Below are positions 51,530 through 63,557 of a DNA stretch of 64,000 nt, piece by piece. The stretch spans positions 10,916 through 74,915 of the forward strand of contig JAVCDC010000020.1 of assembly GCA_030765135.1 (NCBI GenBank). The letters are read 5' to 3'. Source of the DNA: Candidatus Tritonobacter lacicola. Its GTDB lineage: Bacteria > Auribacterota > Tritonobacteria > Tritonobacterales > Tritonobacteraceae. Position 1 is the first letter of the stretch, and each line of letters opens with the position of its first letter. The position numbers and the translations under genes were made by a program. Under the pieces are notes generated by a model. The model had not been told where the DNA came from and made no database searches. It was given only the letters and a program-made list of their open reading frames with translations.

Positions 51530-51967
51530 ATATTTCTTAACACAGAATCGCAAATTCATATATTGACCATTTATTTTATCCATCGTCAAAGACATATTAT
51601 GATTCGAATCATATTTCTCGATACGCAGCTCGCCATTTTCGTAAAATTGAATCCGGTGCCCTGTCAAGTTCAAATCAACTGTCCCTTCTCCTTGATTCTC
51701 ACTTTCGAGCGCCTGTCCAGCTTTATCGCCGGGAAAGCGAGAATGTCATAAGGGATGTTTTTTTCGCTTATAGCTGACAGCTTTTCGTGGCTACTTTGCT
51801 CCGAAATCCGGGGCGCAGACGGCTTAAAAAGAAAGGGGAAAGATGCGACCCCTCACGCCCCCCTCACGCCCTTATTATAAATTTTCTCAAAATATATACT
51901 TGGCACCCCGGATCATTGATCGTTTATTGCTGTCCCTGATTATCAGATTATCAACTGGGCAGAGATT

Positions 51968-53218
51968 TCATGGGCTTAAAATTAGCGGTTTCTGCTTTGG
52001 TCCAGGAGTGTTTGAGCTAGGCACAAAAATGTCCGGGATCTCTCTGAAAACATTCCGCAAGCCAATTCTTAAATAAGGATTCTCTGCAATATGGAGGGCT
52101 AAAGAAAAGGTATGGTCATGATTAAATATCACGCGAATAAAAAGAACAGCATGTATACGAAGGTTGATTCCAAAATTGGAATTTTTCTGCCCCCAAAAGC
52201 CATCTTGAGAGTTACTCGGGGTAGCTTTTATATTGTCTGCATCTATGGGGGTATCATAATCCGGAACGGGGATTGTATATATAGGCTGCCCTATTAGCGT
52301 GTAATATAGGGACTTGGGATCCATTATGATAGAGGATTCCAAGATTGAAGATATAACGATTGGGAAAGGATAATTATCAAGCTTTTTTTGTAAACGCCTG
52401 ATAAAGCGATTTGGGTTGGGATCGCCAGTAGCGAATCCTAAAGTTGCTCCCATATAAACTAACCCTTTATTTGCTCTTGGATGCAGAGTAAACTTAATAA
52501 AAGCGCCATTATGACTTATTTTATGTATTGCCCTTTTGCTTGAATGCCAATCGCCCAAATTGGCAACATAAGATAAAAGTGCTTCTCCCATGCCATTAAA
52601 ATTCCCTTGGTCATTTGGAACAGGAGTGCCTTGGAGAAAAATAAAAAATTCACCTTTGATCGTCTTAAGTTCGTCGAGGAAACGAGACATATTGTCATCG
52701 AATTGGCGCATGATTATTTCTTGCGACATGTAGAAGGCCTCAACAAAGAAACTAGTGTATTGTGTTCGCGCATAGAAATCTGGGGTTCGGCCCGCTATTA
52801 GTGGTTCATACTTAAGATTCTTTATATATTGGGAAAGAACCCATCCAGTTATGAGGTTTCCTAATGCGCCACGGAAGTTTCCATCATGAAATGAAGTAAG
52901 GTGGTTTCTTAGGGATTCGCTTTTTTGTATACCTTCAGGGAGAGACTTCCACATGCGATTAAGTTGATCTAATCGTTTATGGCGATGTTTGATATCAGAT
53001 AACATTCTCCCCAACATTCTATGCTTCAACTCTTCATTTTGTTCTATTTCTTGAAGGAGCTTGTTAATCACTTGCTGGGAAAAGACCATATCATTATCTC
53101 CTTTTCTTCGTGGACGCAGGGTTTGTTTCATATATCTGTAAATGAACCAAGAAGCGAGAATTAGAAATATTGTAACCAGGATCAAAGAGTATGGTGGTAT
53201 TAAGAACGGCATCAGCAA
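51968..53218 (-). CDS. Hypothetical membrane-anchored protein (416 aa): N-terminal TM helix, predicted coiled-coil, about 300-aa globular C-terminal domain; last gene of the RM operon
   Basis: N-terminal hydrophobic helix LILVTIFLILASWFIYRY; helical region with heptad-like pattern. Strongly AT-rich. No recognisable domain. Lies 63 nt downstream of the hsdR stop on the same strand. Confidence 0.5.
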   Translation of the reverse strand: MLMPFLIPPYSLILVTIFLILASWFIYRYMKQTLRPRRKGDNDMVFSQQVINKLLQEIEQNEELKHRMLGRMLSDIKHRHKRLDQLNRMWKSLPEGIQKSESLRNHLTSFHDGNFRGALGNLITGWVLSQYIKNLKYEPLIAGRTPDFYARTQYTSFFVEAFYMSQEIIMRQFDDNMSRFLDELKTIKGEFFIFLQGTPVPNDQGNFNGMGEALLSYVANLGDWHSSKRAIHKISHNGAFIKFTLHPRANKGLVYMGATLGFATGDPNPNRFIRRLQKKLDNYPFPIVISSILESSIIMDPKSLYYTLIGQPIYTIPVPDYDTPIDADNIKATPSNSQDGFWGQKNSNFGINLRIHAVLFIRVIFNHDHTFSLALHIAENPYLRIGLRNVFREIPDIFVPSSNTPGPKQKPLILSP

Positions 53219-53281
53219 GTGGGCGATGGGGATATCGCTGTTGATTCCTTCGCAACTTAGTTGGAATTATTGAGTTAGCGA

Positions 53282-60513: not shown

Positions 60514-61734
60514 TTATTTCCTGCGGCCCGATTTCTTAATATCCCCCTTGATCCCGTCCTCAATCTGCTTTGCTGAAGGGAGTTCGGCTTTCAATTTCGA
60601 TGGTAGAACCCTATAGGTTGCCACGCCCATGGGTTTGGTCGTATCGCGTAGGGCATATTCAACAATGAGCCGATTCCGTTCCTTACAGAGAATCAGACCG
60701 ATTGACGGCTGGTCATCGGGATAACGTAGGAGATCATCCACCGCTGAGAGATAAAAGTTCATCTTTCCGGCAAATTCAGGTTTGAATGGTACGACTTTTA
60801 AATCAATGACGATAAAGCATCGAAGGTGGAGATGATAAAAGATGAGATCAAGGTAGTAGTCCTCACCTCCGACTTCCAGATGCTGCTGCTGGCCAACAAA
60901 AGAAAAGCCTTTGCCGAGTTCGAGCAGGAAATCTTTAATCCGGCCGAGGAGTGCCTGTTCCAACTGCCTTTCGGAGAGATCGGAGCCGAGACTGAGAAAA
61001 CCGAAGTTGTAGGGGTCCTTAATAAGCTGCTGGGCGAGATCGGACTGTGGTGCGGGAAGAGTAGCCGGAAAATTCGTCAGCGCCTTGCCCTGGCGCCTGT
61101 ACAACTTGGTTTCGATCTGATGAATCAGTACGGAACGCGCCCAGCCATGTTCCACTGCTTGCCCTGCATACCATAGTCTCTGGAGGGGGTCCTTTAGCTT
61201 CTCGATAAGAACGACATTATGAAACCAGGGCAATTCCGTCATGACTGGCGGGGGATTGATTCCGTTCATCTGTCGCGCAAGTTGCGCGATTTCTTTCTTG
61301 CTCAAATCTCGCGCAAACTGCGCGAGATTTGCACCCTCTTTTTCATATGCAAGGTAAAATGCGCGCATACGCCATAGATTACTCCCCGAAAATCCTCGTA
61401 TTCCCGGGAATTCTCGCTGTAAATCCTTTCCCAGCCGAGTAACAACAGACTTCCCCCAACCTTCTATCTTTTGCTGTTTTACGATATCTTTCCCAATCCT
61501 CCAATAGAGCAGAATCAGTTCCCTGTTGGAGGCTAAAGCAGCTCTGATCCGAGCATCGCGTATCTTGCGCTTTAACTTTTCAAGAAACGAAGCATAGCCT
61601 TTTGGTAAAAGGGTTTTGGATTTCGATATTTTTCGTTTGGACTGAATGATAAAAGTATCCCCCGACTTTTTCCGCTCGGGATTTGTATGCACCCCTTTGC
61701 GCATCAAGATTTTATCGCTCTTCTTTGATTTCAT
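60514..61734 (-). CDS. DUF1016/YhcG-family PD-(D/E)XK nuclease-like protein embedded between hsdM and hsdS
   Basis: N-terminal region [15 protein letters not shown]...[26 protein letters not shown]-(D/E)XK core [25 protein letters not shown]. Overlaps the hsdM 3-prime end by 23 nt. Confidence 0.75.
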
Positions 61735-63310
61735 ATCCCAATTCTTCCAAATTATTTCGAATCATTGTTTCAAGATTTCTGGATTCTTCAAATTGTTCTT
61801 TGAGCTGGGATGTCAGTCTCTCCATCTTCTCATCGAACGGCTCGCCATCGTCCTCGGCTGCTTCGGCTCCCACATAGCGGCCCGGAGTGAGGACATAACC
61901 GTGTTCCCTAACCTCATCAGTCGTGGCGCTCTTGCAGAAGCCGGGCACATCCTCGTATTTGATCCCCTCACCCCCGCCCCCTCTCCCAGAGGGAGAGGGG
62001 AGAACTTGACCTTTGCTTCGCCAGGCATGGTAGGTGTCGGCTATCCTGGCGATCTCCTCACCCGAGAGCTCCCGATGGATGCGGTCTATAAGATGGCCCA
62101 TCTTGCGGGCGTCGATAAAAAGCGTTTCTCCCCGGCGATCACGGAACTTCCCGTTTTTTTTATTCCGCACCAAAAACCAGAGGCAGACCGGAATCTGCGT
62201 CGTGTAAAAGAGTTGACCGGGCAGGGCGATCATACAGTCCACCAGGCCAGCCTCAATAATGTTCTTGCGAATCTCCAACTCCGCGGTCGTGCTCGTTGAC
62301 ATCGAGCCGTTGGCCATCACGAAACTGGTAATGCCCTTCGGGGAAAGATGGTAGATGAACTGCTGAATCCAGGCGTAGTTGGCGTTGTTCACCGGTGGGA
62401 TGCCATATTTCCAGCGGGCGTCCTCCCTAAGTCGCTGGCCGCCCCAGTCACTCATATTGAACGGCGGATTGGCGAGGATGAAGTCTGCTTTGAGGTCCTT
62501 ATGCAGATCATTGTGGAACGAGTCGGCGTGATGGGGGCCGAGGTTCACGTCGATACCGCGGATGGCGAGGTTCATCTTGCACAGCCGCCAGGTGGTGTGG
62601 TTCCATTCCTGGCCGTAGATGGAGATGTCGCCCACGCGCCCGCCGTGGGCCTCCACGAACTCTTCTGACTGAACGAACATGCCGCCGGAGCCACAGCAAG
62701 GGTCTAATACCCGGCCCTTATAGGGCTCGATCATCTCAACAAGCAACCTGACTATGCAGCGGGGCGTGTAGAATTCACCGCCCGCCTTGCCCTCAGCGGC
62801 GGCAAATCTGCCGAGGAAGTACTCATAAACACGGCCGAGAATGTCCTTGGAGCGGCTCTCTTTATCGCCGAGACCGATAGTGCCGATGAGGTCTATGAGT
62901 TCCCCCAGACGGTGCTTGTCGAGCGCGGGACGAGAGTAATCCTTTGGTAATACACCTTTAAGGGAAGGATTCTCCTTCTCAATGGCCACCATAGCGTCAT
63001 CAATAAGTCTGCCTATAGTGGGTTGTTTCGCCCCGTCCTGGAGCTTTGACCAGCGGGCCTCCTTCGGTACCCAAAAAACATTGGCGGCCGCGTATTCGTC
63101 GCGGTCCTCCGGGTCAGTGTATTCGGTTCCACGCTTGGCCTTGAGATCCTCATATTTCTCCTGGAAGGCATCGGAAATATATTTCAGGAAGATCAGTCCG
63201 AGTACGACATGCTTGTATTCGGAAGCATCCATATGCCCCCGCAACTTGTTTGCAGCAGCCCAGAGCTTTTCCTCGAAGCCAAGATTCGCACCGGTATTCT
63301 TCTTCACCAT
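61712..63310 (-). CDS. hsdM: Type I restriction-modification DNA methyltransferase subunit (N6-adenine)
   Basis: HsdM N-terminal domain; SAM-binding [13 protein letters not shown]; catalytic motif [14 protein letters not shown] (NPPF). 532 aa. Confidence 0.95.
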
Positions 63311-63557
63311 CAGTGCACTCCTTTAATCCAGCAGATATACACTATCATTCATGTTTTCTACTAACGAACCCCGCAGACCCGCATTTTAGCATTAATATTA
63401 TAGCTCAGGAAGCCAAAGAGCACTCGATAAAGGGTTCCCAAATCTTCGCCATCAAGAATAAGTTGTAGAATATGGATATTACTGGATTAGGACGTGGTCT
63501 TACTATTGCTATGGCGAAAACACTTCCTCCTGTTGCTAATTCAGTGATGTGTAGTTA

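Follow-up and report, generated by a model that had tools for sequence, protein, structure and literature searches.

The window analyzed here is a stretch of 64,000 nucleotides (nt) from Candidatus Tritonobacter lacicola (Auribacterota; contig JAVCDC010000020.1, positions 10,916 to 74,915 of the forward strand). Between positions 51968 and 63310 it carries a complete set of Type I restriction-modification (RM) genes together with three extra genes, all on the minus strand. An earlier reading made from the letters without database searches (the sequence-only reading) had described a co-directional block of hsdM, a DUF1016 gene, hsdS, an open reading frame (ORF) of 638 amino acids (aa), hsdR and a last ORF of 416 aa. 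This order stands now that gene identities have been assigned with Pfam and PADLOC v2 (5,027 models); NCBIfam, PHROGs and the PDB sequences served as further libraries. The 638-aa ORF between hsdS and hsdR, here called U638, belongs to a large family that is new to all four profile libraries searched and that shows a striking positional bias. The last gene is called unk373 after its real product, which has 373 residues.

Judged from its domains, the block is an intact, ordinary Type I RM operon whose HsdR has a T1RH-like C-terminal domain. The hsdM gene (61712..63310) encodes a protein of 532 aa in which both the N6-adenine methyltransferase domain (N6_Mtase, 1.2e-106) and the HsdM N-terminal domain (HsdM_N, 5.2e-28) are present, and which matches the PADLOC model MTase_I at 9.6e-234. 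The hsdS gene (58712..59977) is an ORF of 421 aa, or 419 aa in the public gene call; Methylase_S (5.5e-28) matches it in two stretches corresponding to two target-recognition domains, and PADLOC Specificity_I covers residues 103–416 (2.7e-95). HsdR (53282..56497, 1071 aa) has the N-terminal nuclease (HSDR_N, 5.6e-53), the SF2 translocase (SWI2_SNF2, 3.9e-78) and the C-terminal domain (T1RH-like_C, 1.2e-139), with matches to ResIII and T1R_D3-like as well, and scores 1152 bits against PADLOC REase_I.

What kind of protein does U638 (56681..58597) encode? Pfam, PADLOC, NCBIfam and PHROGs contain nothing that matches it, and its sole match among the PDB sequences was a chance one, to a de novo designed protein. 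Scanning members of the family one by one against Pfam gave only weak membrane or coiled-coil matches and a few unrelated ones. The family is nevertheless large: of the candidates scored, at least 1,248 proteins matched with E no higher than 0.001, and the best 120 homologs are all full length and 59–66% identical to U638. Homologs come from Chloroflexota, Deltaproteobacteria, Binatia, Armatimonadetes, Kiritimatiellae, Krumholzibacteria and Zixiibacteriota, and genome loci were also obtained from Nitrospira, Aminicenantes and Planctomycetales. Almost all of the closest relatives listed are from metagenomes and metagenome-assembled genomes, and this may explain the absence of U638 from a survey based on RefSeq. 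Distant full-length relatives (21–29% identity), annotated 'hypothetical protein', are found on plasmids of cultured bacteria: Enterococcus faecium (WP_010706231.1), Klebsiella quasipneumoniae (WP_258336611.1), Arthrobacter, Hymenobacter, Sporosarcina and Pantoea. Neither U638 nor unk373 matches a housekeeping family in Pfam, NCBIfam or the member-by-member Pfam scans.

The genomic contexts of the family were compared in 7 genome loci, 80 metagenome loci and several exact-match loci (designated L plus a number), in which all neighboring ORFs were clustered all-against-all. Distinct loci were obtained by collapsing U638 copies at 95% identity, and at least 1 kb of sequence was needed for an upstream count and at least 1.5 kb for a downstream one. 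Across 89 clustered loci the only recurrent neighbors were HsdS (41), HsdR (33) and HsdM (28); a conserved partner gene other than the Hsd subunits was sought by this clustering and none emerged. An hsdS gene lies directly upstream of U638 in 37 of 60 distinct loci (62%) and an hsdR gene downstream in 23 of 40, and 41 of 66 distinct loci have an Hsd neighbor of any kind. In the RM-bearing loci U638 is on the same strand and, with few exceptions, comes immediately after hsdS. Between the hsdS stop and the U638 start the median distance is -3 nt; the distance does not exceed 30 nt in 43 of 51 loci, and in 31 of the 51 the two genes overlap. Further passengers of the same slot lie mostly between U638 and hsdR and are either genes well known from defense (Fic/DOC, Abi_C, Schlafen/AlbA_2, GmrSD) or transposase genes. 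The HsdM and HsdR proteins that accompany U638 are of one Type I lineage, 50–75% identical to those of the window. The sequence-only reading had spoken of unrelated passengers embedded in an RM operon. The embedding is confirmed, but for U638 the fixed hsdS-proximal slot across loci means that it regularly fills the hsdS-hsdR junction and is not a random insertion. DarTG2 too has been found between hsdS and hsdR, and this site has been proposed as a recombination hotspot for defense systems (PMC12255303). It is of note that in one Type I operon with U638 (L011 7993-10001, L012 661-2669) hsdM is followed by an inserted HEPN/MNT-like pair, of which NTase_sub_bind has a gene of its own and NTP_transf_2/Polbeta is apparently fused to the HsdS N-terminus (531 aa).

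About 38% of the distinct loci have no Hsd neighbor. Some of these still have a setting of the restriction kind: in two (L025; L082, 1-7868) U638 directly follows HmaA-HmaB-HmaC, in L051 it follows a Helicase_C+NOV_C gene, and in L079 a ResIII helicase gene. The HmaC that precedes U638 in L025 and L082 carries an N-terminal HEPN_Swt1 domain. Distance clustering places the members with 43–48% identity (L077-L091) on deep branches, none of them RM-linked, while in the crown group 52 RM-linked copies are interspersed with 17 that are not. As for the plasmid relatives, the two informative records, from E. faecium and Klebsiella, show solitary genes among insertion sequence (IS) elements and resistance genes; in the Arthrobacter record the surroundings are annotated as hypothetical proteins only. 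The relatives in question (L103 6989-8947, E. faecium pNY2032-2; L104 4707-6674, K. quasipneumoniae pKA1-2) have IS1216/IS26 and the genes cat, erm(T), aac(3)-IV and aph(4)-Ia on their flanks, and the plasmids are clinical or animal resistance plasmids. Since the deep branches and the plasmid homologs are not RM-linked, the distribution fits an autonomous one-gene module that has been captured by one Type I operon lineage; an obligate RM subunit fits less well.

Could U638 nevertheless be a dedicated fourth component of a widespread Type I lineage? It would then be a membrane-anchored, PIN-like sensor-effector translationally coupled to HsdS. As a guard, following the logic of PrrC but with a different protein, it would bind HsdM2S or HsdR2M2S in a latent state and be freed as a toxic nuclease or pore when the enzyme is inactivated by a phage anti-restriction protein (Ocr, ArdA or Stp type); in another version it would tether the RM complex to the membrane at which foreign DNA enters. 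There is a precedent for the position: the EcoprrI Type Ic locus has the order prrA-prrB-prrC-prrD, with prrC in the slot between the specificity and restriction genes that U638 also occupies. PrrC is moreover reported to be almost exclusively embedded in Type I RM systems, a case of the 'guilt by embedding' concept (Payne et al., bioRxiv 10.1101/2024.01.29.577857). The place directly after hsdS with other passengers mostly beyond it, the frequent stop-start overlap and the association of all RM-linked copies with one HsdM/HsdR family favor the same idea. The loci without Hsd neighbors do not, some of them being interspersed in the RM-linked crown, and nor do the solitary deep branches and plasmid homologs. 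Nor is U638 identity correlated with that of HsdR (rho -0.04) or HsdM (rho 0.25, p 0.16), indicating that these genes have been shuffled rather than co-evolving, and the GC content of U638 in the window (0.43) differs sharply from that of hsdM and hsdR (0.54). Finally, U638 has neither the ABC ATPase domain nor the PADLOC match expected of a PrrC. We accordingly regard a guard or tether as unlikely, and a fourth Type I component of this kind as correspondingly improbable; that U638 is functionally wired to the RM complex in the fashion of PrrC is doubtful.

The architecture of U638 was modeled with AlphaFold2 from a 56-sequence alignment (predicted local distance difference test score [pLDDT] 73; predicted template modeling score [pTM] 0.60). 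Residues 1-90 (58328..58597) form very conserved N-terminal helices and a winged-helix-like unit (helices 45-56 and 62-75, strands 78-81 and 84-87 in the model), which gives weak Foldseek matches to the winged helix-turn-helix regulators PadR, MntR, GntR and VanR. This region contains the nearly invariant stretch 'TLTSLAMLKV.D.G.DYL.YL.PF'. A helical domain (residues 96-200) and an α/β domain (residues 215-420, 57338..57955) follow. The C-terminal part is modeled as helices at 426-484, a long helix at 493-575 that runs into the first hydrophobic segment, and helices at 580-603 and 607-630. It can be described as a stalk helix (about 493-552), a two-helix membrane hairpin (residues 553-605, 56783..56941) and a 30-aa tail. 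The hydrophobic segments of the hairpin (about 553-575 and 583-605; Kyte-Doolittle peaks 2.38 and 2.26) are kept in 56 of 56 homologs, in agreement with the two C-terminal transmembrane (TM) helices proposed by the sequence-only reading, and both recur in the plasmid homologs of low identity.

Most of the invariant polar residues are in the α/β domain. Invariant down to 19–24% identity are G194, Y219, D221, F257, E263, D329, D352, R363, V379-T380-x-N382 and W416-L417-K418-P420, mostly in or around this domain. The pattern is that of 'FYLDT' closing the first β-strand (D221), a glutamate 42 residues on, more aspartates, and a 'VTSN' strand (T380, N382). The Foldseek matches of highest probability against the PDB are PIN proteins, PAE2754 (1v8o, probability 0.87, TMt 0.53) and AF1683 (1w8i, probability 0.57), both at E of about 1. 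The best E-value of any match in that search was 0.27, so that none is significant. Other observations also weaken the PIN assignment. No Pfam PIN match was found in U638 or in 56 members at E up to 10, and hhalign of the U638 alignment (about 2 effective sequences) against VapC 3TND gave no match (probability 0.1). The model is of low confidence at 337-373 and 396-417, the most conserved stretches are the worst modeled, and the usual fourth acidic PIN position, next to 'VTSN', is non-acidic. Profile searches of the PDB sequences with two U638 alignments gave no match below E 0.3 and none that was relevant, and a phmmer search with VapC over the ORFs of about 1 Mb of fetched loci, made for a PIN alignment, returned zero seed matches. 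The evidence for and against a PIN-like α/β domain is thus about evenly balanced, and we treat the likeness as a lead, not as a membership.

The sequence-only reading had taken both passengers for membrane-anchored proteins, an architecture that it called common among abortive-infection effectors that kill by membrane disruption. For U638 such an effector is compatible with the conserved hairpin behind its long stalk helix, and many members have weak matches to pore or hairpin families (DUF2207_C in 30 of 56 and MCU in 17 of 56, also DUF2721, CorA and S_4TM). These matches, reported without positions, are individually non-significant; they fit the stalk-plus-hairpin layout and do not support a channel. 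The hairpin is, furthermore, the least conserved part of the sequence whereas the α/β domain holds the invariant polar residues, which suggests that the hairpin is an anchor rather than the active element. Killing by membrane disruption is possible for U638 but no better supported than a nuclease mechanism. For unk373 the premise itself fails, as there is no TM helix once its start is corrected, and that both proteins act in this way is quite improbable.

The start of unk373 (51968..53089) was reassessed on several grounds. The ORF of 416 aa (51968-53218) begins at a TTG at 53218 that has no ribosome-binding site, while the ATG at 53089 is preceded by AAGGAG at a spacing of 8 nt. The public gene call has 373 aa and starts MVFSQQ. 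Homologs are mostly 340–385 aa long, and their matches to the 416-aa ORF begin at residue 34 or later, mostly at 44–94. The hydrophobic stretch (residues 5-23 of the longer ORF) that had suggested an N-terminal TM helix lies only in the upstream extension (53090..53218), and no N-terminal hydrophobic segment was found among 24 aligned homologs. The public call, the Shine-Dalgarno placement and the homolog starts thus mark the helix as an artifact; of the two passengers only U638 is membrane-anchored, and the unk373 product is predicted to be soluble.

The unk373 family is rare. A word-indexed homolog search returned only unk373 itself, and an exhaustive HMMER search was needed to reveal 32 representative clusters in 1.84 billion proteins. 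The AlphaFold2 model is a confident one (pLDDT 89, pTM 0.83), and in it residues 69-153 (52631..52885) form a PD-(D/E)xK-like core of the order α-β-β-β-α-β (helix 69-86, strands 91-94, 105-108 and 113-121, helix 125-141, strand 145-153). P103, D104, E117 and Y240 are invariant and T102 and K236 nearly so; P103-D104 open strand 2, E117 is in strand 3, and K236 and Y240 are on a later helix. The sequence-only reading had found no recognizable domain in either passenger. For unk373 this needs to be qualified, since the model and the invariant residues fit a PD-(D/E)xK-like core. The assignment is based on motif and topology, and several points count against it. In most members a hydrophobic residue stands where the lysine is expected, two positions beyond E117, and the helix glutamate, found in 19 of 25 members, is N in the copy of the window. 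Foldseek searches of the PDB and BFVD gave no significant match. Scattered weak ones pointed to domains of the restriction-like endonuclease type, namely R2 RLE, Bax1, SfsA, bunyavirus L, T7 endonuclease I, DUF2726 and two proteins labeled PD-(D/E)XK. K236...Y240 on the later helix may substitute for the displaced (D/E)xK lysine. No consistent Pfam match was found among 28 members, and no match to plasmids. An hhalign comparison of unk373 with self-built HsdR N-domain and DUF1016 alignments also gave no match, but as the positive control (DUF1016 against HsdR_N) failed too, this test was without power. Overall unk373 is probably a stand-alone nuclease, and with a confident model that has no significant structural neighbor it appears to represent a new family.

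Where do the relatives of unk373 occur? The best one (34% identity) is encoded directly behind a DUF499/DUF3780/DUF1156_MTase/PLD_Helicase operon, at a distance of 23 nt from its PLD-SNF2 helicase gene (L094 799-9978, L095, L096). Another is beside AbiGi, a SIR2_2 protein and Fic, a third beside an MmeI-like Type IIG enzyme, T5orf172 and an integrase, and a fourth within an integrase/terminase element; one is in a neutral chromosomal region of Melittangium, and the contigs of two further relatives are too short for context. A conserved small partner upstream of unk373 was considered and rejected, the upstream genes of L099 and L100 being unrelated. Taken with the Type I and Hma loci of U638, these cases mean that homologs of both passengers do occur in defense contexts (Type I RM, Hma and other restriction or defense genes), which is where the sequence-only reading had proposed to look for them. 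Both families are also seen at the 3' end of Hma-type systems (the unk373 relative of L094-L096, the U638 relative of L025/L082). In the other U638 loci with an HsdR neighbor, unk373 never follows hsdR, so it is a lineage-specific addition that lies outside the standard set of this RM family.

The base composition of the block had been noted as visibly lower in GC than its flanks. In 1-kb windows the mean outside the island is 0.570 (standard deviation 0.037) and inside it 0.481, with a minimum of 0.396, so the profile is clearly not uniform. The island itself is a mosaic rather than uniformly poor in GC. GC content and GC at third codon positions (GC3) are 0.547 and 0.67 for hsdM and 0.538 and 0.64 for hsdR, 0.478 and 0.52 for the DUF1016 gene, 0.468 and 0.49 for hsdS, 0.429 and 0.40 for U638 and 0.395 and 0.37 for unk373; the flanking genes have 0.59-0.62 and 0.77. 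Thus hsdM and hsdR are near 0.54 and the two passengers at 0.40-0.43. These figures support the horizontal acquisition of an AT-richer Type I block with three extra genes, as had been proposed, and the more foreign composition of the accessory genes than of the RM core fits cassette exchange within the operon. A second, milder low-GC stretch (about 0.49) is at 38500-40500, where there are an NTPase_1 gene and a small ORF without a Pfam match; it adjoins uvrA (40559-43408).

The third extra gene, DUF1016/YhcG (60514..61734, 406 aa), encodes a PD-(D/E)xK nuclease-like protein and is coupled to hsdM. Its start overlaps the hsdM end by 23 nt, and the protein matches the family models over both domains (YhcG_C 1.2e-60, DUF1016_N 6.6e-40) and has the PD-(D/E)xK signature 'YYLDLIF...VIDLK'. 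It is already catalogued by PADLOC as phage defense candidate PDC-S02 (4.5e-143). The order hsdM-DUF1016-hsdS recurs in four other loci (L001, L014, L057, L058). Between DUF1016 and hsdS is a spacer of 536 nt (59978..60513), apparently non-coding and unusually long for an otherwise compact operon. Its sole ORF (112 aa, 60049-60387) has no match in Pfam, PADLOC, NCBIfam or PHROGs and was rejected as a gene; the frame tested is full of stops, and the spacer has no Rfam match. It contains an imperfect inverted repeat (60104-60126 / 60306-60328, 74% complementary). The spacer may represent the remains of a gene, a scar left by recombination or a promoter region within the operon.

On the left the block is flanked by an SBP_bac_5 (oppA-like) gene (49970-51673) and on the right by an Amidohydro_3 (amidohydrolase) gene (from 63558), both identified with Pfam. 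No integrase, tRNA gene or direct or border repeats were found at the island edges, and promoter and terminator scans gave chance-level results only. A tandem direct repeat ('GGCGTGAGGGG GGCGTGAGGGG', about 51850-51880, minus strand) is present downstream of unk373, within the 294-nt gap to the oppA-like gene and near the left edge of the low-GC block. Two adjacent tRNA genes are found elsewhere in the window (9525-9597 and 9611-9683). Beyond its right end, past the amidohydrolase gene, L008 1-3413 encodes an nSTAND1/AAA_16 NTPase with a PG_binding_1 domain, a TPR protein and two unassigned genes; this region may be another defense-type STAND module near the RM block.

The reading that we favor, and to which we would give roughly an even chance, is that of a horizontally acquired Type I RM operon with DUF1016, an autonomous membrane-tethered effector (U638) and a nuclease (unk373). 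The Candidatus Tritonobacter genome would have acquired the operon with accessory genes at junctions that commonly hold defense genes. In U638 the cytoplasmic part would consist of the winged helix, the helical domain and the α/β domain, with D221, E263, D329, D352 and T380-x-N382 in a pattern that resembles a PIN-like nuclease site, and the stalk helix and hairpin would tether it to the inner membrane. One crown lineage of the family would have become fixed right after hsdS, often in translational coupling, and have spread along with this Type I family. U638 would be expressed together with the RM enzyme and serve as an independent second-line effector of the abortive-infection type, which either detects or cuts nucleic acid at the membrane or forms a pore with its hairpin. 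The soluble, stand-alone nuclease unk373, Type IV-like or itself an effector, would have been added 3' of hsdR in this lineage only. The gene identities, architecture, conservation, context counts and the corrected start codon are results of the analysis, whereas we infer the defense roles of both proteins, as well as any nuclease or pore activity; that U638 is a defense gene of some kind is nonetheless somewhat probable.

Against the favored reading stands the failure to find a sequence-level link of either passenger to any characterized defense protein; PADLOC v2 gave no match to 29 diverse U638 members or to unk373 and three of its relatives. In the window, moreover, the gap between hsdS and U638 is 114 nt, so that U638 is not translationally coupled to hsdS here. 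The share of U638 loci without Hsd neighbors also weighs in this direction, as do neighbors of a neutral or housekeeping kind (sigma-70/GH57, an aminotransferase, UvrD-RecA, an ABC transporter) and the absence of unk373 from the other hsdR loci. Is either gene then cargo of mobile elements, serving plasmid maintenance or exclusion, regulation or some nucleic acid process at the membrane, and gathering at the recombination-prone hsdS-hsdR junction without a role in defense? Transposases do occupy the same slot, the plasmid homologs sit among IS elements and resistance genes with no defense neighbors, some U638 genes adjoin those for RecA/UvrD, ABC transporters or sigma factors, and there is the neutral Melittangium context of one unk373 relative. 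However, the 62% linkage to one RM family, the tight coupling to hsdS and the 59–66% identity across phyla argue for selection at this site, and the remaining contexts are enriched in Hma, helicase-nuclease, AbiG, SIR2 and Type IIG genes. There is, besides, no match to mobility, replication or partition families in the profile libraries. We therefore consider a cargo role for U638 or unk373 rather unlikely.

Type I RM operons are among the commonest bacterial defenses, and genes nested in them have repeatedly proved to be new immune systems. U638 is in this respect a strong, well-defined and easily cloned one-gene candidate for anti-phage tests, with a fixed slot after hsdS in the majority of loci, and the related copies on plasmids of Enterococcus faecium and Klebsiella make tractable hosts available for work on the family. 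Should U638 cooperate with the restriction enzyme, the PrrC principle of an RM system with a back-up suicide module would have a second, independent case, and there would be a way to study how Type I enzymes are connected with the membrane. To this unk373 adds a rare, confidently modeled fold with a probable nuclease core, recurring at the 3' end of restriction-type operons. The block is thus a good experimental candidate; it would be a conceptual surprise only if the guard or tether were real.

How do the passengers compare with known systems? PrrC is a soluble protein with an ABC ATPase and an anticodon nuclease. Like U638 it is encoded by a single extra gene between the specificity and restriction genes and is an RNase-type effector, as U638 putatively is. 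U638 and 29 relatives, in contrast, have no ATPase/AAA domain and no PADLOC or Pfam match, and U638 is membrane-anchored with some 38% of its loci outside RM. DarTG2 uses the same insertion slot but is a two-gene toxin-antitoxin system with a known ADP-ribosyltransferase, whereas U638 is a single gene without assigned chemistry. The PADLOC PDC set consists, as here, of uncharacterized genes nested in Type I RM, BREX, DISARM or Hma systems; DUF1016 belongs to it as PDC-S02, whereas U638 and unk373 match none of its models. 

At the level of the proteins, VapC-type PIN domains (in the 3TND sequence 'MLDTN', E42 and 'VTNN') resemble U638 in its 'YLDT', the glutamate 42 residues later, the invariant aspartates and 'VT.N'. 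As a PIN RNase U638 would be unusual in having no profile or significant structural match, in carrying large insertions, in lacking the fourth acidic position and in the fusion of the domain to a winged helix and a membrane hairpin. With the PD-(D/E)xK nucleases unk373 shares, as modeled, the α-β-β-β-α-β core, the helix glutamate in most members, P-D at strand 2, E in strand 3 and the setting beside restriction systems; it differs in the hydrophobic residue that takes the place of the lysine in most members and in having no significant fold or sequence match to a known family. The conserved TM segments of membrane-acting abortive-infection effectors have a counterpart in U638 (56 of 56 homologs) and not in unk373. 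The arrangement as such, with defense genes nested in an RM operon, is known, and the RM core and DUF1016 are ordinary; what is new is the identity of the two passengers.

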